Part shown: piece after piece, positions 14,370 through 43,405 of the stretch
Numbering within the stretch: position 1 is the stretch's first letter
How the letters are laid out: each line of letters begins with the position of its first letter
Assembly: GCA_963664525.1 (NCBI GenBank)
Contig: OY761535.1
Location: forward strand, 1,295,314 to 1,359,313
DNA: 64,000 nucleotides
Direction: 5' to 3'
DNA from: Arenicellales bacterium
GTDB lineage: Bacteria; Pseudomonadota; Gammaproteobacteria; Arenicellales; JAJDZL01
Notes under the pieces: model-generated
Databases searched by the model: none
Told to the model about the DNA's origin: nothing
What the model saw: the letters and a program-made list of their open reading frames with translations, nothing else
Translations under genes and position numbers: made by a program

Positions 14370-15149
14370 CTAGGCCTCTTCCAGGGCTTCAACTGATTCG
14401 GGTATGGTTTGCCCGCCATCAACAACGATGGTTTGTCCAGTAATGTATGCGGCTTCGTCCGATGCGAAAAACAGTGCCGCATTGCCGATGTCTTCAACCG
14501 ACCCCAGTCGCTTCAATGGAATAGATGCAGCCATGGTCTGCAGATAGTCTCCACCTAAACCTTCAAGACCTTCAGTAACAATATTACCAGGCATCACTGC
14601 GTTGACTGTAATGCCGTATTTGGCGAACTCCATGCAAGCGGTTTTCATAAATCCCAGCTGGCCGGATTTGCTCGCACCGTAGTGAGTCCAACCTGGATAG
14701 CCGGTGATTGGTCCGGTAATCGACGAAGTAATGATGATGCGACCGGAACTGCTTTGTTTTAACTTGGGAAGGCAGCTTTTAATTGACAAAAACGTGCCTT
14801 TAAGGTTTGTCCCTAGCACTAAATCCCACTCATCGCTAGACATATTCTCAAGATGATTTTGAGGGAAAATACCAGCGTTACAACAAAGAATATCAATTCC
14901 TCCGTGATGCTGCGTTGCAGCGTCAGCCATGGCATCCAAGTCTTCTGAACTGGTTACATCAGCAGAAAACGCTGCTGCAGTGCCACCTTCATTGCAGATT
15001 TCTTCTGCAGTTGCTTCGGCATCGGTCATACCACGCGCAACGATTAAAACTCGAGCACCATGTTTCGCAAAAACTTTGGCGATCCCCTTACCGATCCCTT
15101 TACTTGACCCGGTCACTACAACGGATCTACCCTCTACTGAAGTCAGCAT
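14370..15149 (-). CDS. short-chain dehydrogenase/reductase (FabG-like); candidate amino-alcohol dehydrogenase
   Basis: 259 aa with TGSSKGIGKGIA, NAG and YGASK (YxxxK) motifs. Divergent from the aminotransferase/kinase pair. Confidence 0.85.
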   Translation of the reverse strand: MLTSVEGRSVVVTGSSKGIGKGIAKVFAKHGARVLIVARGMTDAEATAEEICNEGGTAAAFSADVTSSEDLDAMADAATQHHGGIDILCCNAGIFPQNHLENMSSDEWDLVLGTNLKGTFLSIKSCLPKLKQSSSGRIIITSSITGPITGYPGWTHYGASKSGQLGFMKTACMEFAKYGITVNAVMPGNIVTEGLEGLGGDYLQTMAASIPLKRLGSVEDIGNAALFFASDEAAYITGQTIVVDGGQTIPESVEALEEA

Positions 15150-15363
15150 GTCACTTTTACCCCCTTCGATGTATTGATGAATAAATTGTTTATGCGTGAC
15201 TAATTTACAGATTTTTGAATCAAATTTGGCAACATTTGACCGAAGAATTTTTTGTTATCAAAAATTTGCTGCCTACTGTCAAGTTTTATCTTCGATTGTT
15301 CCGTAAATTATTACTATCAAAATTGGGGTTGCTCAATCGCAGCGAGTGCGAAAGGAGGTTGAA

Positions 15364-16683
15364 ATGCAAGAAACCAAGCAGGAGTTTCTCGAACGAACAA
15401 AGCAGTATTGGAATCCTGGCAAGACCAGCGACTGGCAAGACTTCGGTGTTGATCTGGTCATTGATCGACGTGAAGGCTACTATCTGTACGACATGGACGG
15501 GCGGCGATTGATTGATGTCCATCTAAATGGTGGCACATACAACCTTGGACATCGAAATCCTGAAGTTGTCGCAGCAGTCAAGGAAGGCATGAAATATTTC
15601 GACATCGGCAATCACCACTTCCCTTCCCTGATGCGCACACATGTTGCCCAAATGTTGGCTGAATGCACGCCGGAAGGCTTGCAATACACTATTTACGCTT
15701 CCGGTGGTGGCGAGGCGATAGATATTGCCCTAAAGTGTGCCCGTCATGCAACAAAAAGACGAAAAATTATCTGTATTGACCACTGTTATCATGGACATAC
15801 CGGACTCGCCGTTCAAGTTGGTGATGAACGTTTTTCGAAGTTGTTTTTGAGCGATGCGCCTCAGCAGGAAGTGGTCAAGGTTCCTTTCAATGACTTAGAA
15901 GCAATCGAGCGTGAAATTCGTATCGGTGATGCCGCTTGCGTCATCATGGAAACCATCCCTGCCACATACGGTTTTCCAATGCCTGCGGAAGGTTACCTCA
16001 GTGCAATCAAGGCAGCTTGTGAAAAAGTCGATACGCTTTACATTGCGGATGAAGTTCAGACTGGCTTGATGCGTTGTGGTGAGATTTGGGGGATTGACAC
16101 CTATGGTGTCACACCGGATATCCTGGTTACTGGAAAAGGTCTGTCAGGTGGAATCTATCCAATTGGAGCCGTTGTCGTGAACGAACGGGCCGGTGCCTGG
16201 CTAAAGGAAGACGGCTGGGGGCACATGTCGACATTCGGCGGTGCAGAACTTGGCTGTATTGCCGCTGCTAAAGTACTGGAAATTTCAAACCGCCCTGAGG
16301 TCCGCTCTATGGTGCACTATATCGCACGTTATATGCGAAATGGACTGGAGCAACTTCGCCGAAACTATCCAGATTTCTTTGTTGCTATACGCCAGCGAGG
16401 GGTGGTCATCGGACTTGAGTTCAATCACCCGGAAGGTGCAGTTCACGTCATGAAAGCATTGTTTAAAAATGGCGTTTGGGCTATATTTTCTTCTCTTGAT
16501 CGCAAAATACTGCAGTTCAAGCCTGGAATTCTGGTGGACAAAGAATTGTGCGACGAAATTTTGAACCGACTTGACACAGCTCTGGTTCAAGCCCAGGCGT
16601 CCGCCAACAAGAGCAACGCAAACGGCACAAAGTCCTCGCAAACGAAACGAGCCGATGATGAGCCGCTTGCTGATGCTGCATAA
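15364..16683 (+). CDS. class-III aminotransferase-fold PLP enzyme (transaminase or O-phospho-amino-alcohol phospho-lyase)
   Basis: Contains DEVQTGLMRCGEIWG and the TGKGLSGG PLP-lysine segment. AGGAGG lies 5 nt upstream of the ATG at 15364. The track start at 15346 is less likely. Confidence 0.85.
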   Translation: MQETKQEFLERTKQYWNPGKTSDWQDFGVDLVIDRREGYYLYDMDGRRLIDVHLNGGTYNLGHRNPEVVAAVKEGMKYFDIGNHHFPSLMRTHVAQMLAECTPEGLQYTIYASGGGEAIDIALKCARHATKRRKIICIDHCYHGHTGLAVQVGDERFSKLFLSDAPQQEVVKVPFNDLEAIEREIRIGDAACVIMETIPATYGFPMPAEGYLSAIKAACEKVDTLYIADEVQTGLMRCGEIWGIDTYGVTPDILVTGKGLSGGIYPIGAVVVNERAGAWLKEDGWGHMSTFGGAELGCIAAAKVLEISNRPEVRSMVHYIARYMRNGLEQLRRNYPDFFVAIRQRGVVIGLEFNHPEGAVHVMKALFKNGVWAIFSSLDRKILQFKPGILVDKELCDEILNRLDTALVQAQASANKSNANGTKSSQTKRADDEPLADAA

Positions 16684-16704
16684 CCCGGTTGACGGAGAAA
16701 AAGC

Positions 16705-17709
16705 ATGACAAAATTTGAACAATTACCGCATGAAGAACAATTGGTGCTACTCGAACGAGTTGCGAAAAATGCTGTCGCTCATTATGATTTTCCAACCGAT
16801 TCAACGGTCCAGTTAATCAACCTTTCAGAAAATGCAACCTACCGCGTGGATGATCACCTAGGCGGTAGAAAATGGGCTTTGCGCGTGCATCGAGAAGGTT
16901 ACCACTCCTATCACGCGATCAAGTCAGAACACGCCTGGACGGATGCCTTGCGTGAACAGGCCGGAGTCATCACTCCTGTCATCGTACCTGGCACAGATGG
17001 AGAGAACATTCAGTCTGTTGATGCTGAGGGTATGCCTGGCGGCCCAAGACATGTGGTTACTTTTGATTGGGAATCTGGCGTTGAACCGCCTGAAGACAAT
17101 CTGATCGCCCCGTTTGAACTGCTCGGCAGCGTTTCAGCGCAAATGCACCATCATTCCAAGAGTTGGCAGCGACCGCAATGGTTTGAACGCTACACCTGGG
17201 ATTTCGAAACGAGTATCGGCGACACACCTCACTGGGGCAGATGGCAAGATGGGATGGGCGTTGATGCTTCCCGTCAGCAGTTATTCGGACAAACAGCTGC
17301 TCTAATCAACGACCGACTGAATAGATACGGAAAGAATCCGGACCGCTGGGGGCTTGTCCATTGTGATATTCGTCTGGCAAACTTACTGATCGAAAACGAA
17401 GTCACCAAAGTCATCGACTTTGACGACTGTGGATTCAGTTGGTTTATGTATGACTGTGCGACGGCACTGAGTTTTATTGAAGCTCGCGAAGACGTGCCTG
17501 AATTGATCAAAGCATGGGTAAAAGGCTACCGTTCTGTGATGGAACTTTCTGAAGAGGACGAGGCAGAAATTCCAACTTTTGTCATGCTGCGCCGCTTGTT
17601 GCTGGTCGCCTGGATTGGCTCTCATTCAGAAACTGAACTTGCGCAATCAATGGGCCTGGACTTCACAAAAGAAACGGTAGAACTTTGCGAGCGTTACCTT
17701 TCGAAATGA
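16705..17709 (+). CDS. APH/choline-kinase-fold small-molecule kinase
   Basis: 334 aa with Brenner motif HCDIRLANLL and IDFDDCG. Lies 21 nt downstream of the aminotransferase-fold gene. Confidence 0.8.
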   Translation: MTKFEQLPHEEQLVLLERVAKNAVAHYDFPTDSTVQLINLSENATYRVDDHLGGRKWALRVHREGYHSYHAIKSEHAWTDALREQAGVITPVIVPGTDGENIQSVDAEGMPGGPRHVVTFDWESGVEPPEDNLIAPFELLGSVSAQMHHHSKSWQRPQWFERYTWDFETSIGDTPHWGRWQDGMGVDASRQQLFGQTAALINDRLNRYGKNPDRWGLVHCDIRLANLLIENEVTKVIDFDDCGFSWFMYDCATALSFIEAREDVPELIKAWVKGYRSVMELSEEDEAEIPTFVMLRRLLLVAWIGSHSETELAQSMGLDFTKETVELCERYLSK

Positions 17710-18090
17710 GTTATCGCTAAAAGTGGTGCTACCGGACCAGGTAGACCAGGTCTGTGCCACAGATTCAACTGGGGCATAAGCAGTACTCAACCAGATTAAT
17801 AGTAAAAGTATTTTTCTGCGCATGATATTTTGTAAAACAATCGATTCGAAAGAAAGCCTGATGACGCTATTCGGCTGACTCTTACTTAAACCACCTGAGC
17901 GGTTTGTTAATACAGTGTTCGGACATTGATAATCACTTGGTGAAGCGGGGTTCACAACAGTACGTTTCAGGCAGGCAATGCCCAAGAGTGTTCCAAAAAC
18001 TGGATGCCATTGCGCAACAAATGGCCTACTCCTGATGGAACGAAGAATCGATGCGAATCAGTAATCTGGAGAGTCAGAAATTCCAGTTAT

Positions 18091-19401
18091 TCAAAGGACT
18101 TGCGGTGGTTCCACCGGCAGTGAGCGCAGAAAGTCTCCGAAAGAAGGAATCGGAATCTTGTAGTGATCCAGCATTCCTCGCGCCGGGGCCAGCAATCCAG
18201 CATGCAATGCATTGGTTAAAAACTCGTCAATACTTTCCTCTTTCCTCTTTCGCGCAGTTTCCGTCAGCAGGTCGACCTCATCATACGACAAGGTATCAAC
18301 AAACTCTCCTTCCTTTTTACCTGCCGCCAAGGCTAACCGCTTATACACCCAAGCCCGGTTGGAACCGGCTTCAATTCGTCCCACATAGTAGTCGTTTTTC
18401 CGTTCGGTGCCCTTATCCAGCGCCTGTGCGAGCAGAAGTCTTTCCAATCGACCTTCATTTGTACGTGCTACCCGACCTGCTGCTACACCGATTCGGTTGA
18501 TATGTTGTGGCCACCCCTGAGACAGCTCCGCCAGGGCATTCACCCAGAGTACCTTTTCTTCCTCTGTGCCAGTATAGTAAGTATCTAGCAAGCACCGAAA
18601 GGAACCTGACGCATCGTCCATCGAAAGAGGTTCCAGGTTCACCAACCGCTCATCCGCAAATCGCGACAAACCACACTCACGCAACACCTGCTGGGTGTCG
18701 CTCAAACCGAAAAAGGCTGTCACCAAAGAAATGTTCGAGGGCGGGTTGTGCAGACAGCCTATCACACCTTGAGTGGTGCCCGCTACCGGAGTGTTCTGGG
18801 CTTCATCCACAAATACCACTAGGTGAAACTTTTCAAGCAATGGTGCGCAGTCAGTGAACACCGACTGTGATAGCAGGTTCGAATCCAGGACATTTATAGC
18901 CTCCGGTTTGCCACCCACCGAAATACCCGCTGCTGCAACTCCTCGTTCCGATAATTCCTGACAAAGCTTTCGTCCAAGTTTCAAATACTCTTCCAGCTTT
19001 CCGGCGATTGTGCTTGGCGCTGTCTTTGCAAGTCGTTCACTTTCCGTATTGGCCGCTTGCACGATTATTCTAATGGTCTGTACGGCAGAAATCAGGGTTT
19101 CAGGCCAAATGGAGACAGCGACCCAGGGATCGTCCGGTGTCGAATGACGTTTGACCGCCTCCATACACTCCAGCATCAGCGCAGACTTTCCGGCACCCGG
19201 CGCTCCCTGGAAAATCATTGTGCCGCCACCTACATACCCTGAACGTAGGCTATCTGCCGCATTGCGAAAGACCTCGTACTCGGCATCTCGACCGCAAAAA
19301 AATGGCTCGCGACCCACTTCGGAACGATCGGTTCGCTTCAGCCACGCCTCCTCTGGTGGAGGTTCGGCTGGCGGCGGCTTGGGAAACGGTCTTTGATTCA
19401 T
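18091..19401 (-). CDS. orphan P-loop NTPase (AAA_16/ORC-Cdc6-like ATP-binding protein)
   Basis: 436 aa with a Pro-rich N-terminus, Walker A FQGAPGAGKSAL and Walker B VVFVDEAQN. Monocistronic, next to IS debris. Confidence 0.7.
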   Translation of the reverse strand: MNQRPFPKPPPAEPPPEEAWLKRTDRSEVGREPFFCGRDAEYEVFRNAADSLRSGYVGGGTMIFQGAPGAGKSALMLECMEAVKRHSTPDDPWVAVSIWPETLISAVQTIRIIVQAANTESERLAKTAPSTIAGKLEEYLKLGRKLCQELSERGVAAAGISVGGKPEAINVLDSNLLSQSVFTDCAPLLEKFHLVVFVDEAQNTPVAGTTQGVIGCLHNPPSNISLVTAFFGLSDTQQVLRECGLSRFADERLVNLEPLSMDDASGSFRCLLDTYYTGTEEEKVLWVNALAELSQGWPQHINRIGVAAGRVARTNEGRLERLLLAQALDKGTERKNDYYVGRIEAGSNRAWVYKRLALAAGKKEGEFVDTLSYDEVDLLTETARKRKEESIDEFLTNALHAGLLAPARGMLDHYKIPIPSFGDFLRSLPVEPPQVL

Positions 19402-19623
19402 GTAGATAAATTTAGTCCAAATAATGTTACCAGTCTTCTGCTACCTTTACGCCGATTCCTAAAGTCCCCTGATCTTAATCAATATTGCGCATATGGACAG
19501 CCTATCTGATTGCTATTATATTTTTGGCTATTGCATATTCTTTCCTAATTACCATGAATTATGAGCATGTTTAGTGGCATAATATATCCAATACAAGTGA
19601 TTGATAAATAAAGGTTATATACT

Positions 19624-20231
19624 ATGAAACGAAACCCTGTTCGGTTCCAGGAAAGCCAAGGCCTCAAGGCGTTCCTGGAGCATTACGGTGACGAAGACAA
19701 ATGCTTCGAATCACTGTTCAAATAGCGCTGGCCAAACGGCTTTATCTGCCCCAACTGCAGACACCACAAAAGCTGCCACCTCAACACCCGCAAACTGCGT
19801 CAGTGCTACCGCTGCCATCGCCAGATCTCGCTCGTCGCCGGCACGATCTTTGAATCGAGCAAACTGCCTTTGACCATCTGGTTTCAAGCCATTTACCTTT
19901 TGACCCAGACCAAAAAGGGCATCTCCGCCATGCAGTTGCACCGGCAACTGGGCATTTCCTACAACGCCCGCCTGGCGCATGAAGCGCAAACTGATGCAAG
20001 GTGATGCGAACGCGCAGCAGTGGAAAAACGAAGTTTTATTGGGTCAATACGGTGCTGAGCAATCTCAAGACAGCCTTGCGCAGCAGCGATCACTCCTTTA
20101 ATGCGAAATATGCCCCGCGCGACCTGTCCGAATTCGAGTATCGCTTCAATCGGCGGTACCGCTTGCCGGATTTGATTCCAAAACTGGCTTACGTCGCTTT
20201 GACAACGCCGCCTATGTCTGAAAACTCTTGA
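19624..20231 (+). pseudogene. IS1595-family transposase pseudogene (in-frame stop, frameshift, internal deletion)
   Basis: The N-terminal zinc-ribbon part MKRNPVRFQESQGLKAFLEHYGDEDKCFESLFK*RWPNGFICPNCRHHK..QCYRCHRQ has a TAG after K33. The frame is lost at ..GISYNA. A C-terminal piece (..EFEYRFNRRYRLPDLIPKL) resumes at about 20001 with the DDE core missing. Confidence 0.75.
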
Positions 20232-20385
20232 AACATGGCTTACGATAAATGGTAATAAAGAAATAATTTTCAATGACACTGTTGGCAGTAGGCATTCGTT
20301 CAGTTAACCTTGGTTTAGAAATCATAATCTCGACGATCTCTTAGGCCATCAAACTTGTTGCTTATTTGCTGTAAGATTAGGCTAC

Positions 20386-20682
20386 TTAGTCAAAATCAAT
20401 TCTCTTCAACGCGCTCGTGTCTATCGTCTGTCTCACTTTATACAAGTCGAAACCTTCTTGTAGCGCTAGCCAGCTTTCAGCTGAACTGCCAAGTACTTTA
20501 GAAAGGCGAACCGCCAATTCCGGCGAAATTCCGGACTTGCCGTTCAATAATCGGTTGAATGTACTTCGAGCCACTCCCAACTGATTTGCTACTCCATTCG
20601 AGGTAATTCCCTCAAAAGGTTCGATATACGTACGTAGAATCAATTCTCCAGGATGAGGAGGGTTATTTTGTCGATAACTCAT
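20386..20682 (-). CDS. higA: HigA-type antitoxin (XRE HTH), orphaned
   Basis: 98 aa. Contains HPGELILRTYIEP...GVANQLGVARSTFNRLLNGKSGISPELAVRLSKVLG. Confidence 0.8.
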   Translation of the reverse strand: MSYRQNNPPHPGELILRTYIEPFEGITSNGVANQLGVARSTFNRLLNGKSGISPELAVRLSKVLGSSAESWLALQEGFDLYKVRQTIDTSALKRIDFD

Positions 20683-20754
20683 CAGTGATAGTCCTTATAG
20701 TTCACAGAGTGGGCATCACAACCATCAAACGTAATGAGTAAGTATTCACTTGCC
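20682..20754 (-). pseudogene. 3' fragment of a HigB toxin gene (last ~24 codons only)
   Basis: My minus-strand translation gives KASEYLLITFDGCDAHSVNYKDYH*, with the TGA overlapping the downstream higA ATG (TGATG). Compare the intact HigB C-terminus RICFRFRDGDAFDVEIVDYHK. The frame is closed by a TAG just upstream, at the stop of the neighbouring higA. Confidence 0.55.
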
Positions 20755-21048
20755 TTAAGCCACTATACGCGGACGAATTGCATTTAGAGCATCAACCTCC
20801 TTTGATTTTGCAATCTCAAGTTCATAAAGAGACTGAAGATTGATCCAACTCCTTGCATCGGTATTGAAATATCGCGCTAAACGCAGTGCTGTACTCGCTG
20901 TGATTCCTCGACGACCGAGGACAATATCGTTGATTCGCGTTGGTGTTACTCCAAGCGCATTGGCCAATGCTGTGGCTGAAAGACCAAAAGGTTCCATGAA
21001 CTCGTACTTCAAAATCTCGCCAGGATGAACAGGTTGTAGTTTATTCAT
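20755..21048 (-). CDS. higA: HigA-type antitoxin (XRE HTH)
   Basis: 97 aa. Contains HPGEILKYEFMEPFGLSATALANALGVTPTRINDIVLGRRGITASTALRLARYF. Confidence 0.85.
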   Translation of the reverse strand: MNKLQPVHPGEILKYEFMEPFGLSATALANALGVTPTRINDIVLGRRGITASTALRLARYFNTDARSWINLQSLYELEIAKSKEVDALNAIRPRIVA

Positions 21049-21159
21049 ATTGTCCCTCCATTTTTTTAAGGAACTTGAATATTAAGTCATTGATATAGTT
21101 GTATTAGAAAATATTTATTCTTTGATATAGGCGTTGCCACCATCAATAGCACTGGGGAC

Positions 21160-21441
21160 TTATTTGTGATAATCTACTATTTCCACGTCAAAGGCATCTC
21201 CGTCACGAAAACGAAAACAAATCCTCCATTGATCATTTATCCGAATGCTGTATGAACCCGATCGTTTACCACGTAAAACCTCTAATCGGTTTCCGGGTGG
21301 AATTCGCAAGAATTCAATCGATGTAGCGGCATTCAATAGTGCGAGCTTCCGCTGAGCGACTCGCTCGAAGTTTCGAAAACGCCGTACCCGAATCTGGTTA
21401 GCGAGTCTCTCGGTATCCTTACTACGATAACTCCGAATCAT
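21160..21441 (-). CDS. higB: HigB toxin (RelE/ParE superfamily, 'killer protein')
   Basis: 93 aa. MIRSYRSKDTERL...LRIPPGNRLEVLRGKRSGSYSIRINDQWRICFRFRDGDAFDVEIVDYHK. Confidence 0.85.
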   Translation of the reverse strand: MIRSYRSKDTERLANQIRVRRFRNFERVAQRKLALLNAATSIEFLRIPPGNRLEVLRGKRSGSYSIRINDQWRICFRFRDGDAFDVEIVDYHK

Positions 21442-21450
21442 ATGAAAATT

Positions 21451-21483
21451 ATATCGTATATCGATATTCGATATTCGATATAA
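21451..21483. promoter_or_regulatory. candidate higBA operator (ATATCGATAT-type repeats)
   Basis: ATATCGTATATCGATATTCGATATTCGATATAA lies directly upstream of the higB ATG and contains overlapping palindromic TCGATAT units. Confidence 0.35.
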
Positions 21484-21585
21484 TAATTTGATGCATTTAA
21501 TTTTGTGTATGCTGGTCTACTAAATGGAGAGGAGCGAATACCAAATTGCGTTCCGGGCAGGCGTTGCGAAAAGCGCAAACTAGTG

Positions 21586-21830
21586 TTATGTCTCATTAAT
21601 TCGTTTACAGTAGGTCTTCAACGAATCCAAAATGTCGTCGGCACTTTTTGTCCACACAAAAGGCTTTGGATCCTCATTGTAGATCTCCATATACTGTTTG
21701 ATCGCACTATCCAAATCCCTTGTGTTGTGTCATACGACCCGCGCCGAATTTGTTACCGGGTGATCTCAGCAAACCACCACTCAACCAGATTTAACCAGGA
21801 CGAACTAGCCCGAATATTGCACCAAAAATA
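21586..21830 (-). mobile_element. IS630-family transposase C-terminal remnant (stop plus frameshift)
   Basis: My minus-strand translation gives ..SSSWLNLVEWWFAEITR*QIRRGS.. and then, in another frame, ..RDLDSAIKQYMEIYNEDPKPFVWTKSADDILDSLKTYCKRINET*. This matches the conserved IS630 tail (SWLNxVExWF...NxxPKPFxWT). The 108-aa plus-strand track ORF here is its antisense shadow. Confidence 0.65.
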
Positions 21831-22056
21831 GAAAATGGGTTTAAATTTGGTAAATTGGGTTTAATCCCCCCATTTGCTGAATTAGAATCATCATTCGATG
21901 ATCCAGAAGGACTATAGTCCAACTATTACGGAACTGCCTATCCAGGTTGACTGTTACTATTTCGTGAAGTTACCTGGAAGGTCGACTTTAAATGCGACAG
22001 GAATCCTGATAAACTATTTGAGCACAATTAACCGTCATGAATTTAGAAGGTTTTCA

Positions 22057-22521
22057 ATGTTCCGTATCGATCAAATCAAAAGCGCTGTAATCGTTGTTTT
22101 TTGCCTGCTGACTTTAGTTGCAACACCTTTATATGCTGCAGAAAATCCTGTGTTCACCGGAGGTGGGGAATTTGCCATAAAAGGATATGACAGCGTCGCC
22201 TACCATCTAGAAATGAAGCCGGTCAAGGGGCAAAGCGAATTCACTACTGAATGGAACGGTGCAGTCTGGCGATTCAAAACGGCCGAAAATCGTGACCTGT
22301 TTCAATCAGACCCGGAACGATGGGCTCCAAAATACGGCGGTTACTGCGCTTGGGCAGTTTCAAATAATTACACCGCAAAAACCGACCCCGATGCCTGGTC
22401 AATCGTGGACGATAAACTCTACCTGAACTATAGCCGCAGTGTACGCAGAAAGTGGAGCAAAGACATACCAGGCAACATTGAGCGCGCAGATGCCAACTGG
22501 CCAGAGGTTCTGCAAAAGTAA
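22057..22521 (+). CDS. secreted YHS-domain family protein
   Basis: MFRIDQIKSAVIVVFCLLTLVATPLYA signal peptide, then AIKGYDSVAY...WRF...F..DPERWAPKYGGYCAW. AGAAGG lies 6 nt upstream of the ATG at 22057. The longer track ORF from 21898 is unlikely. Confidence 0.7.
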   Translation: MFRIDQIKSAVIVVFCLLTLVATPLYAAENPVFTGGGEFAIKGYDSVAYHLEMKPVKGQSEFTTEWNGAVWRFKTAENRDLFQSDPERWAPKYGGYCAWAVSNNYTAKTDPDAWSIVDDKLYLNYSRSVRRKWSKDIPGNIERADANWPEVLQK

Positions 22522-22584: not shown

Positions 22585-23214
22585 TTACCAGTCGCGACCT
22601 GAGGTACTCTCGATCATTTGTAAAACGTGATCGAGCGCTATTTGAGTATTTTGCTCAGTCCCGGCGATAAATACACGACCTGATACGCCGAACATTTGGC
22701 AATCTACCAGAACATTTTCTGCGACCGCAGATTCGGCTGCGTTCGCCGCAGCGGCGGCAAAAAGAGCCGGTGCGGTTTCCAGCAGCAGCATTGATTCACC
22801 TGGTAGGATCATTGACGCGTCTCTTTGCCGATTGATAATGACCGAATGCTGATCGCCAACATCAGTCACCAGGTCGGAGTAAAGTACTCTCGGTTTCAAT
22901 TGCGATGCGGCTTCCAATTTGAATCCAGACAATATCGCTTCACCTGCAGCATGCAAATCATCCAATTCAGGGCTGTGTAATTCCAGGATCCCAAACTGTC
23001 TTTCCACATACAAAATACCCGGCTCTATGGTTGGAACCGATTTCAGCGCAAGGTCAATGACGCGGTGAATCGCAAGTGCCGGTGCAATCTCAATAATCAG
23101 TGAGTGCATGCCTTGCAAGGGTACGTAACCGCGCGCTCGAAGTGCAGTCGCCATATAAGCTGCAAACTGCGTCTGCAAATTTTCAATTTGCAGATATACC
23201 CTTAATTCAACCAT
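22585..23214 (-). CDS. tandem BMC-domain shell protein (BMC-T-like)
   Basis: 209 aa, made of two halves with BMC-like patterns: LIIEIAPALAIHRVIDLALKS...ERQFGILELH..AAGEAIL and LLLETAPALFAAAAANAAESA...GVSGRVFIAGTEQNTQIAL. Paralogous to the 202-aa protein at 24435. Last gene of the BMC operon. Confidence 0.7.
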   Translation of the reverse strand: MVELRVYLQIENLQTQFAAYMATALRARGYVPLQGMHSLIIEIAPALAIHRVIDLALKSVPTIEPGILYVERQFGILELHSPELDDLHAAGEAILSGFKLEAASQLKPRVLYSDLVTDVGDQHSVIINRQRDASMILPGESMLLLETAPALFAAAAANAAESAVAENVLVDCQMFGVSGRVFIAGTEQNTQIALDHVLQMIESTSGRDW

Positions 23215-23298
23215 GAAAATCGATCCATCATTAGCGCGAATCGCCCTGGCAAACTATGATTTTGTTTGCCAGCAACGAATAGTCCAGGTAATGGTTGG

Positions 23299-23580
23299 CT
23301 ACTTGCCAGAAGCAACGTCAAATTTCTTGACAACGTCCGCATGTGGTCGCGGGATGACATGAACTGAAACCACTTCACCAACCGAGCCGGCCGCTTCTGC
23401 GCCTGCCTCTGTAGCGGCCTTTACCGCACCGACATCTCCGCGAACCAGTACAGAGACAAGCCCCGCACCTACCTGTTCTTTGGTGACGATTTCTACGTTC
23501 GCGGCTTTTACCATAGCATCGGCAGCAGTGAATGCTCCGACGTAGCCACGAGTTTCAATAAATCCAATTGCGTTTGACAT
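23299..23580 (-). CDS. BMC-H hexameric shell protein (PduA/CcmK-like)
   Basis: 93 aa with the canonical sequence [29 protein letters not shown]...[27 protein letters not shown]...VHVIPRPH. Confidence 0.9.
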
Positions 23581-23621
23581 GACTATTCTCCAGTTACAAA
23601 CAATTGTTTTAAAAATTAACC

Positions 23622-23888
23622 CTAGTTTTTGCTGTTCGTATTTTCATCGACGATACCGATCACCAATGCGTCAACTACAGCGTTTCCTGACTTGAACCAA
23701 CCTTTGGCAACCGAACCTTGAGAAACAATGACTTGCTCCCCAGCGCCTGCGCCCAGTGGGTCGTAAGCCAAAATTCGTTCGGCGACTTTCCCGTCTTCGA
23801 TCAAATCGATTTCCAAAAGTGCGCCTCTTGGTAACTCATCCAGTCTGCGGGTCGCCCAAATTTTTCCAATTACAGTGCCTACTTTCAT
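23622..23888 (-). CDS. BMC-P pentameric vertex protein (EutN/CcmL family)
   Basis: 88 aa. [29 protein letters not shown]...[16 protein letters not shown]...[10 protein letters not shown]. Confidence 0.9.
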
Positions 23889-23890
23889 GG

Positions 23891-24430
23891 TTACTGCCTC
23901 ACTATTTCAATTTTCAACTGACGCGCCCGATCCTTTGCGAGTGGCGTCAGAATCACGCCTTTTGCGATTTCAATTCGCTGATGGGTTTTTGATAACGCCA
24001 GTACCTTAGATTCAACCAATACACCAGATTCAATGCGACCGTTGCATGGTGCAGTATCTGCTGACTTTTTTGAGTCAATCGTTATCGATTGACTTGTTTT
24101 TCTATCAGGTACTCGTTTTGAGTTTGCCGAGCCCGGCTGCGTCAAGGCTTTGAATTTCAGCCGGCCTGCCCCAATGAGCCCAGCGACGTGCTGGTCCTTG
24201 AGACACTTGGTAAGGTCTTGGACAAATTCGTTCACTTTCTTGTCAGAACTTAAATCTACCGCTACTGCAGTTTTGCCGTTTGACTGCGCTGACTCTAATA
24301 GTTGTTTCATCAATCTGCAGTTTGTTGGTGGCGCAGTATTGACTTGGCTTTGCGGACTAGGCAGCGCCTCAAGCAGCGCTTCACGAACCGCTCGACGAAT
24401 CTCTTCTCTTGAATAGGCCAGTTCACTCAC
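23891..24430 (-). CDS. BMC-operon protein of unknown function with an N-terminal amphipathic (encapsulation-peptide-like) helix
   Basis: I place the start at the GTG at 24430, 4 nt after the upstream stop, with GAGGA about 9 nt upstream. The N-terminus is SELAYSREEIRRAVREALLEAL followed by a Pro/Ser/Gln linker. The C-terminus is GVILTPLAKDRARQLKIEIVRQ. The stop lies 2 nt before the BMC-P ATG. Confidence 0.6.
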   Translation of the reverse strand: MSELAYSREEIRRAVREALLEALPSPQSQVNTAPPTNCRLMKQLLESAQSNGKTAVAVDLSSDKKVNEFVQDLTKCLKDQHVAGLIGAGRLKFKALTQPGSANSKRVPDRKTSQSITIDSKKSADTAPCNGRIESGVLVESKVLALSKTHQRIEIAKGVILTPLAKDRARQLKIEIVRQ

Positions 24431-24434
24431 CGCT

Positions 24435-25043
24435 TTACATCCTCGCTTCCAGCGCCTCTTCTGCAGCTCGAGCGGCCGAGCGTACATCGCTTTCAGGACC
24501 GCTAAGATAAACGCGCCCTGTCGCCCCAATCATCCGGTAATCCACGACCTTGATGTCGGCTGCTTTTTCAGCTTCATTAACAGCCAAAATGCTGTAAGAT
24601 GCCGGCTGCATTTCAAACACGAACAGCGATTCACCTGGCAAAACCATAGATCCTAATTTGTTGCGATTAATGAGAAACGCATGGTAATCATCGACTCGTT
24701 TGACAATCGTGGATGCCAGAATTTCAGGAGCAAGCGCATCAGATGGACTCGCATTCAACGTTTCCATCACCGCTTCACCCCCTGCAACCACATCTGCAGT
24801 GTGCTCCGAATGAAACTCAAGATAGCCAAACTGGCGCTCAACAACGAGAATCCCTGGCTTGACATTGACATTCTTCAATGCGATGTCGGTGATTCTTTCA
24901 ATGTGAAGACCTGGCACGACTTCAATGACCATAGCCGCCATATTCGATTTGGGTAAGTAGCCGCGAATCCAACTGCCCAAATAACACATCGTTTTGGGCT
25001 GAAGTTGGTCAATAAAGATGTAGGAACGAATTTCAGCCATCAC
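24435..25043 (-). CDS. tandem BMC-domain shell protein (BMC-T-like)
   Basis: 202 aa. VIEVVPGLHIERITDIALKNVNVKPGILVVERQFGYLEFHS..VVAGGEAVM, then a second half FVFEMQPASYSILAVNEAEKAADIKVV..GATGRVYLSGPESDVRSAARAA. The ATG overlaps the AldDH stop (TGATG). Confidence 0.7.
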   Translation of the reverse strand: MMAEIRSYIFIDQLQPKTMCYLGSWIRGYLPKSNMAAMVIEVVPGLHIERITDIALKNVNVKPGILVVERQFGYLEFHSEHTADVVAGGEAVMETLNASPSDALAPEILASTIVKRVDDYHAFLINRNKLGSMVLPGESLFVFEMQPASYSILAVNEAEKAADIKVVDYRMIGATGRVYLSGPESDVRSAARAAEEALEARM

Positions 25044-26605
25044 AAACGCGTTCGTCTAACGAGTTGAAGCGAGCGAATTTCTTCGAGAATAATCTGGTGA
25101 ATTTCAGCCCTTAAATCACCGCTCGACCATGCACCTGTAACTGATCCCGAATGACTGGTTTCAAAGCCATCCGCGAAAGAATAATCGATCTTTTGATCGC
25201 GCGGCCGCGGCTGAGAAGCATTTTGCAATTCCAAGTTCTCAAATTGATCTGTGTCGATCATCGCTTCTTTGTTGTAAGCGATTTTTGACCACTGCACCAA
25301 GTGCTGTGGACCGACATTGTCACCCACCGAACTTCTACCAAAAAATCCTGTGCCAACCGTCATGGTTGGTGCAAGATTGGTATTAAACCCCGATGCACCA
25401 GTGCTACACGGAGCGTTGACCGGAGTTCGCAATACGCTTAACTCAGATCCAAAACGCAACACCATTTGGGGATCCTGGCAGTGTATCGCAGCAGAGTGCC
25501 CACTACCCATTCGCCGCGTCATCGCATTACAAGCCTTCATTGCAGCGTCGCGGCTCGCAACGACATAGAATCCGAGTACAGGACAAAGTTTTTCCCGACT
25601 TAATACGTAATCATCACCGATACGTTCAAGGTCGACAACGAGTACCCGGGTATTTTGAGGGACCCGAATTCTGGCACGTTCAGCGATCCACTCAGCTGGC
25701 TGACCAATGACCGATGGGTCGAATGCGCCTTCTGGATATAGCAGTTCAGTTATACGATCCCGTTCTTCATCACTACAGTGATAACAACCCTCTTTTTTCA
25801 GCGCAACAATTAAATCGCTGCTGATTGCCTTATGTGCGACCACCGCCGATTCATTGGTGCAAAGAATGCTGTTATCAAACGACTTACTATCGGCAATGCA
25901 TTTTGCGGCATGTTCAACGTCAGCAGTTTTATCAACATAGGCTGGACAGTTGCCAGGACCGACGCCCAGTGCAGGGTTACCAGAACTGTAAGCAGCCCTG
26001 ACCATAGGTGAACCGCCTGTTGCGAGAATCACATCGATACCATCGGAACGCATGACGCCTTCAATCACCTCTAACGTGGGATTCTCGATTACCTGAATAA
26101 TGCCATCCGGCGCACCCGCATCTTCTGCAGCCTGTGCGATTTTAGCGACCGCATCCGAACAGCATTCTTTCGCCGAGGGATGTGGACTGATGACAATTGC
26201 ATTTCGCGTCATTAATGCGAGTAGTGCTTTGAAAAATACCGAGCAGACTGGGTTGGTGGACGGTGTCAGTGCAAAGACGACACCAGCAGGCCGTGGAATT
26301 TCAATGACTTTGCGTTCGTGATCGATGCGGTGGCGGGTGAAATCATGATCCTTATAGTATTCATAAATACCCTCGCTGCACATCCGGTTCTTGATCTCTT
26401 TGTGGTCTGCATTACCAAACCCCGTTTCAGCAACGGCCCAGTCAGCATACTGGCGTGCAGTTTCATTACCAATGTCTGCGACCGCTTTGGTAATACGAAG
26501 CACATCATCGCGCCGGTAGCCGGCATACACGCTGCCGGCCCAACGTGCCCGGTTGACAACTCTCATCGCCTGAAAAATCGGCGTTGGCTGTGAATGTATC
26601 GGCAT
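25040..26605 (-). CDS. CoA-acylating aldehyde dehydrogenase (EutE/PduP-type) with a C-terminal extension
   Basis: AldDH core with catalytic Cys in FDNSILCTNESAVV, plus ALTPSTNP and ATGGSPMVRAAYSSG. The C-terminal tail is a low-complexity linker followed by DLRAEIHQIILEEIRSLQLV. The start is uncertain: 26605 (MPIHSQ), 26662 or 26566. Confidence 0.85.
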   Translation of the reverse strand: MPIHSQPTPIFQAMRVVNRARWAGSVYAGYRRDDVLRITKAVADIGNETARQYADWAVAETGFGNADHKEIKNRMCSEGIYEYYKDHDFTRHRIDHERKVIEIPRPAGVVFALTPSTNPVCSVFFKALLALMTRNAIVISPHPSAKECCSDAVAKIAQAAEDAGAPDGIIQVIENPTLEVIEGVMRSDGIDVILATGGSPMVRAAYSSGNPALGVGPGNCPAYVDKTADVEHAAKCIADSKSFDNSILCTNESAVVAHKAISSDLIVALKKEGCYHCSDEERDRITELLYPEGAFDPSVIGQPAEWIAERARIRVPQNTRVLVVDLERIGDDYVLSREKLCPVLGFYVVASRDAAMKACNAMTRRMGSGHSAAIHCQDPQMVLRFGSELSVLRTPVNAPCSTGASGFNTNLAPTMTVGTGFFGRSSVGDNVGPQHLVQWSKIAYNKEAMIDTDQFENLELQNASQPRPRDQKIDYSFADGFETSHSGSVTGAWSSGDLRAEIHQIILEEIRSLQLVRRTRL

Positions 26606-26833
26606 CCTTACAAATTGAATGAACAGAATTTCGTCTTGTAGCGAAAATTCTATGTCACGCAAAATGTTTTAGTCTTGACAGTTCAAACCAATTAGTTGAC
26701 TTCAGAGCGCGTGAATCATGCCAGTCTGTGTTGGCCAACGCATGACGGTCGAAAACAAAAGACCGGCACCACCGATCAATATCCTAACCGATACAGCGTT
26801 TGTCTGCTGCGTCGACAGCCACGCAGTTTGTTC

Positions 26834-33462: not shown

Positions 33463-33545
33463 TTATCACCGCATAATGTGCGACAATTATTTTTAATTTT
33501 GCGGTGATTAAACCTTACATTCACCTTGTTTTGTGCGGTGATTAA
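33463..33545. promoter_or_regulatory. repeated TGCGGTGAT(T)AA boxes upstream of the Fic gene
   Basis: TTATCACCGCA sits at 33463-33473 in inverted orientation. TGCGGTGATTAA occurs at 33500-33511 and again at 33534-33545, the latter abutting the start codon. Confidence 0.3.
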
Positions 33546-35923: not shown

Positions 35924-36997
35924 ATGAGCATTACCGTTGATTCAGTTCACCAGGAATTCATATCGAATTCTGTACATGCCCGTGGTGCTGAACCGGTGCC
36001 TCACGTCCTGGCGCCGGCGGCGACCGGGGTGAGTCAATTTATTTACGATCACGGCGGCGATGCCGATCGCGTCTTTGGAGAAGCAGGTGTCGATCCTGAC
36101 TGTATCGGCAACCCGACGATCGGAATGTGTTTGAAATCGTTTTGTGGGCTATTCGAATCCGCATCAGGCAATACACAAAACGACAATTTCGGTCTGTGGT
36201 TTGGAAATCAGTTTCAACCTGATGACCTTGGGCTTTGGGGTTATGCAGCGATTTCTTCACCTACACTCGGTAATGCACTAAACAACCTGATTGATTTGTT
36301 TCGTTACCACCAACAATGCTCAATGTTAAGACTGACAGCCGCAAACAAGCGCTTTTGTCAACTCGAGTATCAAGTTCGAGATCCGCATATTGTCGAACGC
36401 CGACAGGACGCTGAATTATCGCTTGGAATGTTTTTCAACTTAATCCGCGAGTGCATGGGACGCGACTGGCACCCGGAGGAGGTGTATTTCGAACACCCGA
36501 AACCCGAGGACAGCAAAGAACACGAACGAGCGTTTAATGCGCCTGTATTTTTCAGTCAGAAGTTCAATGCCATCGTCTTTGATCCATCGATTTTGGAAAA
36601 ATCGATGCCAAATTCGGATTTGAAACTGATGGCAGTCACACGCGCTTGCCTTGAGTCTTTGCACACCAACATGCCAATGAATCAGAATCTGACCGATAAA
36701 ATCAGGAACCTGATTCGCATCAAACTGGCCGACGGCTATCCCTCGTTGGAACTGATTGCTGAGAGTCTGTATATGAGTACGAGTGCAATACAGCGTAGTT
36801 TGGCGTGGGAAGGGCTTTCCTATACCGATCTTGTCGAAGAAGTTCGAAAGAGCCTCGCCGAGATGTACTTCAAGCAACGCAATCTTTCCTTATCGGAAAT
36901 CGCCTATCTGCTTGGCTACTCTGAGCTTAGTGCCTTTAGCCGCGCATTTCGTCGCTGGACTGGACATTCACCGCGTGAATATCGAGGAAAAGCCTGA
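35924..36997 (+). CDS. AraC-family transcriptional regulator with N-terminal ligand-binding domain
   Basis: 357 aa. The C-terminal AraC HTH is LSLSEIAYLLGYSELSAFSRAFRRWTGHSPREYR. Confidence 0.85.
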   Translation: MSITVDSVHQEFISNSVHARGAEPVPHVLAPAATGVSQFIYDHGGDADRVFGEAGVDPDCIGNPTIGMCLKSFCGLFESASGNTQNDNFGLWFGNQFQPDDLGLWGYAAISSPTLGNALNNLIDLFRYHQQCSMLRLTAANKRFCQLEYQVRDPHIVERRQDAELSLGMFFNLIRECMGRDWHPEEVYFEHPKPEDSKEHERAFNAPVFFSQKFNAIVFDPSILEKSMPNSDLKLMAVTRACLESLHTNMPMNQNLTDKIRNLIRIKLADGYPSLELIAESLYMSTSAIQRSLAWEGLSYTDLVEEVRKSLAEMYFKQRNLSLSEIAYLLGYSELSAFSRAFRRWTGHSPREYRGKA

Positions 36998-37147: not shown

Positions 37148-37963
37148 TCAATCGGCTCGTCCGAATTTCAATCGCCGAACTACATACATCACCACGAAGG
37201 CAATCAACAGTAACCCTGCAGCACCACCGATCGTCAAAGAACCCAATGTTGGCACCATTGGTGTGTAGCCAGAAACCATCTTTGAATACAACCACTCTGG
37301 AATGGTCTGATCAGCGCCGGTTGTAAAAAGCGAAAGTGGGAAATTTCCCCAAGACAGCAAGAACGCGAAAATCGCTCCAGATATGATGCCAGGTGAGAGG
37401 ATTGGCAATGTAATTTCCCGTAACACTTGCAGTCGAGAAGCACCTAAATCATAAGCCGCCTCTTCCCAGACCGGATCAAAGCTATAAACCTGAATGGACA
37501 TGATCAGCGTAACGATTGGCAAAATCCAAATCAGGTGTGCGAATACGGCCGTGTGCCAGCTGGTCGTGATCCCCAAAGCGGAAAACCACAAAAGCAGTGC
37601 GAGACCCAACACCGCTTGAGGAAAGAAAATCGGCAGCAATATCAGTCGCTGGTACAGTTTTCGCCCTTTCCAATCATAGCGAGCAAATGCAAGTGCGCCA
37701 AAGAAAGCCAGTAGAACCGAAATGAGCGTAACCAGCAAAGCAACACTAAACGACGTCCAGAATAAATCACGCACCGACAATGATTCAAACGCTTTTTCAT
37801 ACCATCGGGTATCCCAGGCTTTGACAGGAAAGCGAAAATACCGCTGCTTGGTGAACGATGCCAAAATAACCGACAGCATTGGCATGTAGAGAAACAATAT
37901 GACGGCTCCCGTCCAAACAATGATTAAGGCGTGAGCGATTTTGCGCTGTCGTGTAGATTTCAC
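37148..37963 (-). CDS. ABC transporter permease (PotC-like)
   Basis: 271 aa, polytopic, with EAA loop EEAAYDLGASRLQVLREITLP. Confidence 0.85.
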   Translation of the reverse strand: MKSTRQRKIAHALIIVWTGAVILFLYMPMLSVILASFTKQRYFRFPVKAWDTRWYEKAFESLSVRDLFWTSFSVALLVTLISVLLAFFGALAFARYDWKGRKLYQRLILLPIFFPQAVLGLALLLWFSALGITTSWHTAVFAHLIWILPIVTLIMSIQVYSFDPVWEEAAYDLGASRLQVLREITLPILSPGIISGAIFAFLLSWGNFPLSLFTTGADQTIPEWLYSKMVSGYTPMVPTLGSLTIGGAAGLLLIAFVVMYVVRRLKFGRAD

Positions 37964-37965
37964 AG

Positions 37966-38826
37966 CTAACGTCGCCCCACCAGTCGATCGAGATCAATTT
38001 TACGGAAAAGAAAAAATATGATGATCAGCGAAAGAGTGATCAACAACACGGATAGCACCGACCCTTTAGGCCAGTTTTGCGCAAAGGTAAATGCGGATTC
38101 AATATCGTCAGCGATCATTACGATGACCTGTCCACCTAATATCTTGGATTCAGCTAGCGATCCGAGGGCCAGGATAAAAACCAAAAGACTGCCAATTAGT
38201 ATGCCGGGCATCGAAAGAGGAAGTTCAACCTCCCAAAATATCTGCAGCCTTGACGCGCCGAGATCTGAGGCAGCCTCTTTAAGCGAGTCAGGTACCATTG
38301 ACATGCCAATGACAAGCGGAAAAAGCATGAATGGCAAGTAGACATAGACTAGCCCAAGCACGACAGCAGGTACGGAATAAAGTAATCCTGATAGCGAAAT
38401 GCCAAACAAAAACTGCAAAGAGCCATCAATAATGCCATTCTTGAGCAATAGCAACACCCAGCCAAATAAGCGAATGTTCTCTGAAATCAAAAGCGGTAGC
38501 GCAACCAGGATCGTAACCAGCGTAGCCCACTTACCAAACAATTTGGCCATTCCGTAAGCGATCGGATAAGTGATGATCAAAAGCAAAATAACGGTTACAA
38601 CAGCAAGCACCAAAGACCAGCCAAAAGAGATGTAATAACTTTGCGTTACAACTGAAAGGTAATTTTCGAGCGTAGGCGCCTGGTTGAGTGTGAACGTCTT
38701 TGACGGCATGAAGCTGTACAGAAGTACCAACACCAGCGGGCCGGCAAATCCGATCAGCAAAAACACGCCAACCGGCAAGGCGTTCAAAAAACCAGGTTGA
38801 CGTAACCAGTGAGTGAGCGCTTTCAT
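37966..38826 (-). CDS. ABC transporter permease (PotB-like)
   Basis: 286 aa, polytopic, with EAA loop KEAASDLGASRLQIFWEVELP. Confidence 0.85.
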   Translation of the reverse strand: MKALTHWLRQPGFLNALPVGVFLLIGFAGPLVLVLLYSFMPSKTFTLNQAPTLENYLSVVTQSYYISFGWSLVLAVVTVILLLIITYPIAYGMAKLFGKWATLVTILVALPLLISENIRLFGWVLLLLKNGIIDGSLQFLFGISLSGLLYSVPAVVLGLVYVYLPFMLFPLVIGMSMVPDSLKEAASDLGASRLQIFWEVELPLSMPGILIGSLLVFILALGSLAESKILGGQVIVMIADDIESAFTFAQNWPKGSVLSVLLITLSLIIIFFLFRKIDLDRLVGRR

Positions 38827-38869
38827 AGCTTGGCAGTAATTTCAGGTGCCAGATCCTAAAAGGTGCGAC

Positions 38870-39946: not shown

Positions 39947-39999
39947 CTACCATGGGCTCCATCGGAAGTTCCCATCATTGATCCATCAAAAAACTGTGT

Positions 40000-42399: not shown

Positions 42400-42429
42400 T
42401 TTTTCGTCCTTAATTTGAAATAATGAGTT

Positions 42430-43392: not shown

Positions 43393-43405
43393 TGACTGAC
43401 TCCTG

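Follow-up and report, generated by a model that had tools for sequence, protein, structure and literature searches.

The 64-kb stretch of Arenicellales DNA analysed here, which we refer to as the window, carries a short-chain dehydrogenase/reductase (SDR), a class-III aminotransferase-fold enzyme dependent on pyridoxal phosphate (PLP) and an APH-fold kinase near an operon of bacterial microcompartment (BMC) shell genes. We propose, with a probability of about 0.8, that this triad supplies the soluble enzymes of an Arenicellales microcompartment of the RMM/AAUM type, which serves the utilisation of aminoacetone / 1-amino-2-propanol. The three triad genes and the six genes of the BMC operon are all orthologous to genes of the M. 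smegmatis RMM1/AAUM1 locus (L088 in our set), and the shell block has the same order in both. This upholds an earlier note on this DNA, made from the sequence alone, which had read the triad as the amino-alcohol module of an RMM-type microcompartment. The RMM/AAUM type is described in Axen 2014 (PMC4207490) and in the supplement of Sutter 2021 (PMC8217296). Proteobacterial loci of this system have thus been catalogued before, and Arenicellales is an added host order.

In the proposed pathway, the SDR would interconvert aminoacetone and (S)-1-amino-2-propanol, and the kinase would phosphorylate the aminopropanol hydroxyl, both activities being those of the M. smegmatis orthologues. The PLP enzyme would then eliminate phosphate and, after hydrolysis, ammonia, to give propionaldehyde. 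An aldehyde dehydrogenase (AldDH), sent to the lumen by its C-terminal peptide, would turn the aldehyde into propionyl-CoA in a shell that would comprise a single BMC-H, a single BMC-P and two BMC-T. The two operons appear to share a 26-bp operator, for which the AraC-family regulator nearby is the probable binding protein, and the ABC transporter beside that regulator is the probable importer of the substrate. We infer the lyase reaction, the identity of the aldehyde, which enzymes are luminal, and the roles of regulator and transporter. The triad consists of the following genes:

14370..15149, minus strand: SDR (Pfam adh_short_C2, E 1e-62), orthologous to the M. smegmatis RMM-locus (S)-1-amino-2-propanol dehydrogenase (APDH)
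15364..16683, plus strand: class-III aminotransferase-fold PLP enzyme, 439 aa (Pfam Aminotran_3, E 1e-72), RMM-type candidate amino-alcohol-phosphate phospho-lyase
16705..17709, plus strand: APH-fold kinase (Pfam APH, E 1e-21), orthologous to the (S)-1-amino-2-propanol kinase (APK)

The SDR and PLP-enzyme genes are divergent, with a 214-nt intergenic region between them. The PLP-enzyme stop codon (16681-16683) and the kinase ATG (16705) leave a spacer of 21 nt, and 4,875 nt lie between the kinase stop and the end of the nearest BMC-operon gene (22585). Open reading frames (ORFs) and Pfam matches agree on this layout, which is the one given in the earlier note: a divergent SDR and an aminotransferase-fold/kinase pair with a 21-nt spacer, about 4.9 kb from an AldDH-BMC operon. 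The PLP-enzyme ORF has an alternative start at GTG 15346. ATG 15364 is the likely start because it is preceded by a ribosome-binding site (RBS), GAAAGGAGG, and yields 439 aa, in line with the 433-439 aa of the nearest homologues.

The SDR and the kinase match the RMM amino-alcohol enzymes, as which the note had identified them. The SDR aligns with PDB entries 6CI8/6CI9 (E 2.6e-93, 315 bits) and contains the TGxxxGIG and YxxxK motifs; it is 57% identical to the SDR of the M. smegmatis locus, which corresponds to 6CI8 (E 1e-165). The kinase aligns with PDB 6EF6 (E 7.6e-94, 317 bits; the next PDB match has 61 bits), conserves the HxDxxxxN and DFDD motifs and is 47% identical to the kinase of the M. 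smegmatis locus. P0241, an M. smegmatis protein encoded inside that microcompartment locus, has 97% identity to 6EF6. Given this near-identity to the kinase and SDR genes of the locus, we take 6EF6 and 6CI8/6CI9 to be the structures from the M. smegmatis kinase and SDR studies. By the titles under which they are cited, studies by Mallette and Kimber of 2017 and 2018 reportedly characterised the M. smegmatis SDR and kinase.

The same architecture could serve another substrate, with ethanolamine or another amino alcohol giving acetaldehyde or another aldehyde, but we consider this unlikely. Such a change of substrate would fit a kinase that has diverged this far from the M. smegmatis enzyme and an ABC system in place of the actinobacterial permease, and a related locus in R. 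jostii has an ethanolamine permease and an ETNPPL-type lyase. However, the window keeps an SDR closely related to the aminopropanol dehydrogenase, divergent on the shared operator region, and ethanolamine needs no such enzyme. The close identity of the PLP enzyme to that of M. smegmatis (63%) also argues for aminopropanol.

The shell genes lie in a six-gene operon on the minus strand (22585-26605), which has the following content:

22585..23214, minus strand: BMC-T of the double-stacking CcmP/CsoS1D type, 209 aa, orthologue of MSM0271 (NCBIfam CcmP model, 177 bits)
23299..23580, minus strand: BMC-H hexamer shell protein (Pfam BMC, E 2.8e-27; 70% identity to the M. smegmatis BMC-H)
23622..23888, minus strand: BMC-P pentamer vertex protein (Pfam EutN_CcmL, E 1.3e-20; 43% identity to the M. 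smegmatis BMC-P)
23891..24430, minus strand: conserved protein of unknown function, 179 aa, probable start GTG 24430 behind a GAGGA RBS
24435..25043, minus strand: second double-stacking BMC-T, 202 aa, orthologue of MSM0275 (PDB 5L39, 288 bits)
25040..26605, minus strand: CoA-acylating AldDH, 521 aa (Pfam Aldedh; NCBIfam EutE/AdhE-type models, 421-438 bits)
25058..25117, minus strand: encapsulation peptide at the AldDH C-terminus, DLRAEIHQIILEEIRSLQLV, a conserved amphipathic helix preceded by a variable linker

With a single BMC-H, a single BMC-P and two distinct BMC-T proteins of the double-stacking type, the shell set matches the description of the RMM/AAUM type. The 209-aa BMC-T is 55% identical to the 218-aa BMC-T of the M. 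smegmatis locus, and CsoS1D_N is found on its orthologues. The 202-aa BMC-T is 69% identical to its 202-aa counterpart, and its best solved relative, PDB 5L39, is entitled ‘RMM microcompartment shell protein MSM0275’. The AldDH, whose start at ATG 26605 was placed with the help of a 100% identical database copy of 521 aa (P0121), is 45% identical to the M. smegmatis RMM AldDH, and its C-terminal helix is present in all orthologues, those of M. smegmatis and R. jostii included. An acylating AldDH with an encapsulation peptide, together with an incomplete core that has neither phosphotransacylase nor alcohol dehydrogenase, is a feature of the RMM/AAUM type, and the ORFs annotated around the locus show this combination. 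The protein of unknown function has counterparts at the equivalent place in M. smegmatis and R. jostii and is 26% identical to the M. smegmatis one. Its N-terminus forms an encapsulation-peptide-like helix, SREEIRRAVREALLEAL, and a C-terminal motif of ~45 aa is common to the M. smegmatis and R. jostii proteins, with a weak match to TIGR02536 eut_hyp.

Linkage across genomes ties the triad to the shell operon. A kinase-alignment scan of one genome per species gave more than 490 relatives, of which 80 loci were kept. The best 25 loci are from Arenicellales or unclassified Gammaproteobacteria, with kinase identities of 75-84%, and share the upstream synteny of the window (thioredoxin-like, UDG and LplA-like genes); the other 55 are mostly from Alphaproteobacteria. 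Linkage was counted over the 54 kinase loci that are flanked by 8 kb or more in both directions, with BMC genes scored within 10 kb. The RMM-type PLP gene is present in all 23 Arenicellales loci, 11 of which have BMC genes, and in 24 of the 31 other loci (mostly Alphaproteobacteria), 20 of these 24 having BMC genes. AT3-type loci overall are linked to BMC genes in 31 of 47 cases. Where linkage was missing, three Arenicellales genomes were checked, and all three have an orthologous shell operon elsewhere, in two of them on the triad’s chromosome at distances of ~60 kb and ~670 kb. Since these unlinked genomes still hold the shell operon, the triad and the shell operon are separable but are both kept. 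Triad and BMC genes occur together in dozens of genomes, far above chance, and co-occurrence, which the earlier note had named as a check, thereby supports the association.

In the window itself, the 4.9-kb gap between kinase and shell operon is made up of an insertion of ~4.2 kb followed by a YHS-domain gene, which adjoins BMC-T in 12 Arenicellales loci. The insertion is absent from L001, L012 and L024, where the kinase abuts BMC-T, and further Arenicellales have 1-8 kb of unrelated sequence in its place. In L001, the closest compact relative, the shell operon begins 184 nt after the kinase. We attribute the separation to the insertion because the triad abuts the shell operon in this compact relative. 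In Kaustia mangrovi (L002), the PLP enzyme, kinase, shell block, AraC-family gene and SDR are clustered. The gap contains these features:

17710..21897, no strand: variable insertion from the kinase towards the shell operon, not part of the pathway (Pfam)
18091-19401: AAA_16 ATPase, within the insertion (Pfam)
20386-20682 and 20755-21048: two HTH_3 proteins, within the insertion (Pfam)
21160-21441: HigB toxin, within the insertion (Pfam)
21898..22521, plus strand: YHS-domain (seleno)protein (NCBIfam NF041384, 168 bits), next to the shell operon in Arenicellales

The two operons are also linked by a common upstream motif. Comparison of both upstream regions across genomes gave the pattern TCAA-N4-TTG-N8-TGTCAAG, with two TCAA half-sites 21 bp apart. 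The window has two such sites, and a regulator and a transporter of possible relevance lie further along:

15258..15283, plus strand: operator-like site 1, TCAAAAATTTGCTGCCTACTGTCAAG, in the SDR/PLP-enzyme intergenic region, 81 nt before the PLP-enzyme ATG
26674..26699, minus strand: operator-like site 2, TCAACTAATTGGTTTGAACTGTCAAG, 69 nt before the AldDH ATG
35924..36997, plus strand: AraC-family regulator (Arabinose_bd + HTH_18; Pfam), candidate for both operons
37148..41151, minus strand: ABC transporter with two permeases, an ATPase with a TOBE domain and a probable binding protein (Pfam), candidate importer

The 26-bp motif has exactly two matches in the window, both at promoter positions, and shuffled sequences give 0.06, a figure that is partly circular as the pattern was derived from the same regions; independent support comes from other genomes. 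Exact matches number 22 in 1.52 Mb of loci, and each is found a short way upstream of a PLP-enzyme, kinase or AldDH gene. If one mismatch is allowed, every match still lies within 200 nt upstream of such a gene, and with at most two mismatches, 63 of the 87 matches in 1.59 Mb (loci and window) do so on the coding strand. In Arenicellales, the distance from motif to gene start varies little, at 69-86 nt for the PLP enzyme and 68-79 nt for AldDH, and site 1 is conserved upstream of the orthologous PLP gene in all Arenicellales loci examined. The motif is also found upstream of the unlinked shell operons (L083-L086) and of triads with no shell genes nearby. Its occurrence before both operons indicates co-regulation, as judged from motif positions. 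A terminator-like hairpin (26777-26761) separates the AldDH operator from the upstream gene for glutamate dehydrogenase (GDH), a weak hint; the promoter and terminator scan gave nothing above shuffled expectation.

The motif could also be a sigma-70 promoter on the opposite strand, TGTCAA being the reverse complement of TTGACA. This could fit on the SDR side, but we rejected it because a promoter of that orientation at the AldDH site would run into the GDH gene at its 3' end. A regulator-binding site is the preferred reading of the motif. Direct-repeat geometry is typical of AraC-family sites, and for that reason the AraC-family protein is probably the binder. An AraC-family gene of the same architecture lies beside the locus in L001, L002, L083/L084 and L086, with orthologues in L008, L012 and L023, and BPD_transp_1 genes are found on its flanks in L001, L002 and L086. 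The ABC transporter probably imports the substrate. The GntR regulator and amino-acid permease of actinobacterial loci are replaced here by the AraC-family regulator and the ABC transporter. The same substitution occurs in other proteobacterial loci; the GntR/permease pair is accessory rather than defining.

These data also bear on whether the triad is a free-standing cytosolic amino-alcohol pathway that happens to lie beside a BMC operon with another signature enzyme, which we regard as improbable. In its favour, 12 of the 23 Arenicellales loci have the triad and no BMC genes within 10 kb, kinase and SDR loci with an ETNPPL-type enzyme have no BMC genes, and the triad proteins have no encapsulation peptide. 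However, the same operator stands upstream of both operons, also in unlinked cases, and the BMC operon is still found in the three genomes without linkage. The shell operon of M. smegmatis and several Alphaproteobacteria opens with the PLP gene, which immediately precedes AldDH, and no other aldehyde-generating enzyme was seen beside the shell genes in any locus examined. The earlier note would have been weakened if the three proteins showed neither an encapsulation signal nor co-regulation with the shell genes. No recognisable signal was found in any of the three enzymes, and the co-regulation is supported by the operator common to both operons.

The step from aminopropanol phosphate to aldehyde depends on the PLP enzyme. 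This protein is 63% identical (568 bits) to the aminotransferase-fold protein of the M. smegmatis locus. Its PDB matches include E. coli putrescine aminotransferase PatA (178 bits) and human ETNPPL (6TOR, 106 bits), with identities of 29% to PatA and 22% to ETNPPL-type proteins. In a neighbour-joining tree of 20 sequences, whose inner bootstrap values are weak, the PLP enzymes of the window, M. smegmatis and Alphaproteobacteria form one tight clade beside PatA. The ETNPPL/A1RDF1 clade is separate from this RMM-type clade, and the window enzyme falls outside the ETNPPL/AGXT2L group. The best NCBIfam score is 231 bits, to the putrescine aminotransferase model with a cut-off of 612, and no model’s cut-off is reached. 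The AGXT2L phospho-lyases had been offered in the earlier note as a precedent: the logic of a kinase combined with a class-III lyase carries over as an analogy, and homology at the level of the clade does not. Grouping with ordinary transaminases, which the note had held would speak against a lyase, is found in part, in that the nearest reference is PatA, but the enzyme has its own clade with the RMM enzyme and scores below the cut-offs.

Class-III transaminases use a Glu/Arg pair (E211/R398 in GabT, E243/R426 in PatA) to handle the 2-oxo-acid/amino-acid co-substrate. The columns of GabT E211/R398, to which PatA E243/R426 are equivalent, hold T201 and Q384 in the window enzyme. Inspection of the active site, advised in the earlier note, thus found the transaminase pair replaced. 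Among 120 homologues, Thr is present at the T201 position in all and Gln at the Q384 position in 118. The PLP-binding Lys258, together with Asp229 and Gln232, is kept. In the A1RDF1/ETNPPL phospho-lyase clade, the Glu/Arg columns have Thr/Ser and Lys. HemL, which uses no oxo-acid, is likewise without the pair.

The kinase offers a second line of evidence. Its family is paired either with the RMM-type PLP enzyme or with an ETNPPL-type protein. In the BMC locus of R. jostii plasmid pRHL2, the PLP enzyme is of the ETNPPL type (5G4I, 320 bits; 6TOR, 298 bits), and eight alphaproteobacterial loci with kinase and SDR but no RMM-type gene have an ETNPPL-type gene ~7 kb away and no shell genes. This pattern is as expected from non-orthologous replacement of one function, suggesting that the two PLP types are interchangeable. 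Because of the loss of the Glu/Arg pair, the NCBIfam scores below cut-off and the pairing of the kinase with both PLP types, we infer that the RMM-type PLP enzyme is probably a phospho-lyase rather than a transaminase.

Two published schemes assign it a transaminase role: Axen 2014 (PMC4207490) has it convert aminoacetone to methylglyoxal, and Ravcheev 2019 has it convert 1-amino-2-propanol to lactaldehyde. That the enzyme is a true aminotransferase, from whose product AldDH would make pyruvyl- or lactyl-CoA, has these schemes, the transaminases among its top PDB and NCBIfam matches and its grouping with PatA rather than ETNPPL in its favour, but is very improbable given the near-invariant Thr/Gln replacement, the scores far below cut-offs, the substitution of ETNPPL-type phospho-lyases beside the same kinase family, and the placement of its gene 21 nt upstream of a kinase (titled aminopropanol kinase in the M. 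smegmatis orthologue) that it leaves without a role.

Several points weigh against the assignment of the triad to an RMM/AAUM-type pathway. The phospho-lyase role of the RMM-type clade is a prediction from sequence. As of 2021, the documented class-III-fold lyases were ETNPPL, its close relative and the newly added PbfA (PMC8154272), and the nearest characterised relative of the window enzyme is the transaminase PatA. A literature search for a characterised aminopropanol-phosphate phospho-lyase found nothing relevant. The substrate preference of the kinase could differ from that of the characterised enzyme, to which it is just 47% identical. No recognisable encapsulation peptide was found in the SDR, kinase or PLP enzyme, nor in any AT3-type protein examined, which leaves it in doubt whether the aldehyde is produced inside the shell. 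The SDR and kinase have no terminal extensions, and the PLP enzyme has a low-complexity tail of ~30 residues that ends in -ELADAA and forms no helix. A peptide at first assigned to the PLP orthologues of L032 and L064 was found, from the ORF listing, to belong to the adjacent AldDH. For cofactor recycling, no phosphotransacylase or alcohol dehydrogenase is present among the ORFs annotated around the locus. Finally, triad and shell operon are transcribed separately in the window and lie far apart in some relatives.

Taken together, the data allow a broader reading, to which we give about even odds. The RMM-type PLP enzyme would be a second, independently evolved lineage of amino-alcohol-phosphate phospho-lyases in the class-III aminotransferase fold, convergent with ETNPPL in the loss of the Glu/Arg pair; the organelle in Proteobacteria would be a regulon rather than a locus; and the lyase would enter the shell with no encapsulation peptide of its own. 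Entry could be mediated, for example, by the encapsulation-peptide-like helix of the protein of unknown function or by the conserved C-terminal -ADAA tail. If this reading is true, enzyme and shell operons would stay co-regulated by one AraC-type operator even at distances of hundreds of kb.

At its C-terminus (16590-16683), the PLP enzyme has a hypervariable low-complexity linker of ~25 residues, followed by a conserved -[EM][LMFY]A[DNE]AA end (P0001-P0013, L003-L026). Many alphaproteobacterial orthologues also end in -AA (RQSAA, RREAA, LPKAA), and the M. smegmatis protein does not. From its residues, this end resembles an ssrA-like degron or a short docking motif.

Our analysis extends a poorly understood microcompartment type, with an incomplete cofactor-recycling core and an uncharacterised signature enzyme, to Arenicellales. 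It adds the Thr/Gln signature of the candidate lyase clade, the finding that the kinase has partners from two unrelated PLP clades, an operator common to both operons with a candidate AraC-family regulator, and the variation in linkage. Residues T201 and Q384, the conserved operator and natural variants in which the operons are adjacent, split or far apart provide testable handles. The accepted picture of RMM/AAUM is refined, not changed.

Other observations concern the arrangement of the locus in relatives. The kinase/shell-operon junction is a hot spot for insertions, at which other Arenicellales have 0.2-8 kb of different content. In L011 and L013, the YHS-domain gene lies beside the kinase (~11334) with no shell genes within 10 kb, which suggests that the shell operon was rearranged or lost at the YHS site. 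The genome with the 670-kb separation has a second SDR of 254 aa directly after the last shell gene (L085, 14141-14905, plus strand). One Arenicellales chromosome (OY762925.1, 3.82 Mb) has two whole triads, L016 and L019, with the same upstream synteny and ~3.6 Mb apart by the coordinates of the record; no shell genes were found within 10 kb of either copy. In L048, L058, L066-L069, L071 and L079, the kinase is directly followed by the SDR, and an ETNPPL-type PLP gene lies ~7 kb downstream. These loci have no shell genes and no RMM-type PLP gene, and by gene content they look like a microcompartment-free variant of the pathway.

Further genes surround the locus. An NAD-specific GDH (Bac_GDH) of 1605 aa (26834-31651, minus strand) lies directly upstream of the AldDH operon, in the same position as in L009 and L083-L086; it might be linked to the handling of released ammonia, or the adjacency might be coincidental. 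A probably truncated cytochrome P450 ORF (32286-33227, minus strand) matches only the first ~290 positions of a 462-position profile. Near it lies a DUF4172-Fic protein (33545-34303, plus strand), and the location of both between the GDH and AraC-family genes suggests a second insertion zone within the extended locus. Upstream of the triad, a type I polyketide synthase of 2481 aa (3900-11345, plus strand) has the domain order KS-AT-DH-MT-ER-KR-ACP, a full reducing set with a methyltransferase, and partial homologues occupy the same upstream position in several Arenicellales loci. The window also contains two LplA/LipB-like proteins with lipoate-ligase domains (13255-14268 and 43406-44524, both on the minus strand). 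The second of these genes adjoins two radical-SAM proteins (41293-43488, minus strand) and a sulphur-transport protein (44994-46202).

Among known systems, the M. smegmatis RMM1/AAUM1 locus has the same order of AldDH, BMC-T, unknown protein, BMC-P, BMC-H and BMC-T. It also shares the shell composition, the C-terminal encapsulation peptide of AldDH and the lack of phosphotransacylase and alcohol dehydrogenase. The differences lie in the surroundings. In the window, PLP enzyme and kinase are encoded by a separate operon of two genes that converges on the shell operon, whereas in M. smegmatis their genes flank the shell operon. M. smegmatis has a GntR regulator and an amino-acid permease instead of the AraC-family regulator and the ABC transporter, and in the window, whose host is a gammaproteobacterium, the 4.2-kb insertion splits the locus. 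According to the supplement of Sutter 2021 (PMC8217296), RMM1/AAUM1 combines a single BMC-H and a single BMC-P with two different BMC-T proteins of the double-stacking type. The same source lists 140 RMM1/AAUM1 loci, from Actinobacteria and Proteobacteria, and 32 RMM2/AAUM2 loci with a different gene order, from Proteobacteria and Ca. Marinimicrobia; Arenicellales is absent from those of its supplementary files that were searched. By these descriptions, the window locus may belong to either subtype; the taxonomy and the rearranged enzyme genes of RMM2/AAUM2 fit it.

PatA/YgjG of E. coli (PDB 4UOX) is the best sequence and structural reference for the PLP enzyme and shares the PLP-binding Lys, Asp and Gln; it differs in retaining E243 and R426, at the positions of T201 and Q384 in the window enzyme. 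The phospho-lyases ETNPPL/AGXT2L1 (6TOR) and A1RDF1 (5G4I) share the logic of an APH-fold kinase followed by a class-III-fold PLP enzyme for the O-phospho amino alcohol, and the loss of the Glu/Arg pair. In contrast to them, the window enzyme is only 22% identical, forms a separate clade and carries Gln at the position of the Lys of the lyases. The R. jostii RHA1 pRHL2 locus, found by tblastn of 6EF6 against plasmids, a search that returned no M. smegmatis match, differs from the window in that its ETNPPL-type enzyme carries an encapsulation peptide; the last ~30 residues of this lyase are identical to the AldDH C-terminus. The locus (L087, 4552-13035) has a tandem duplication of the BMC-T, unknown protein, BMC-P and BMC-H block and an ethanolamine permease. 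Judged by its genes, it resembles the RMM design adapted to ethanolamine phosphate.

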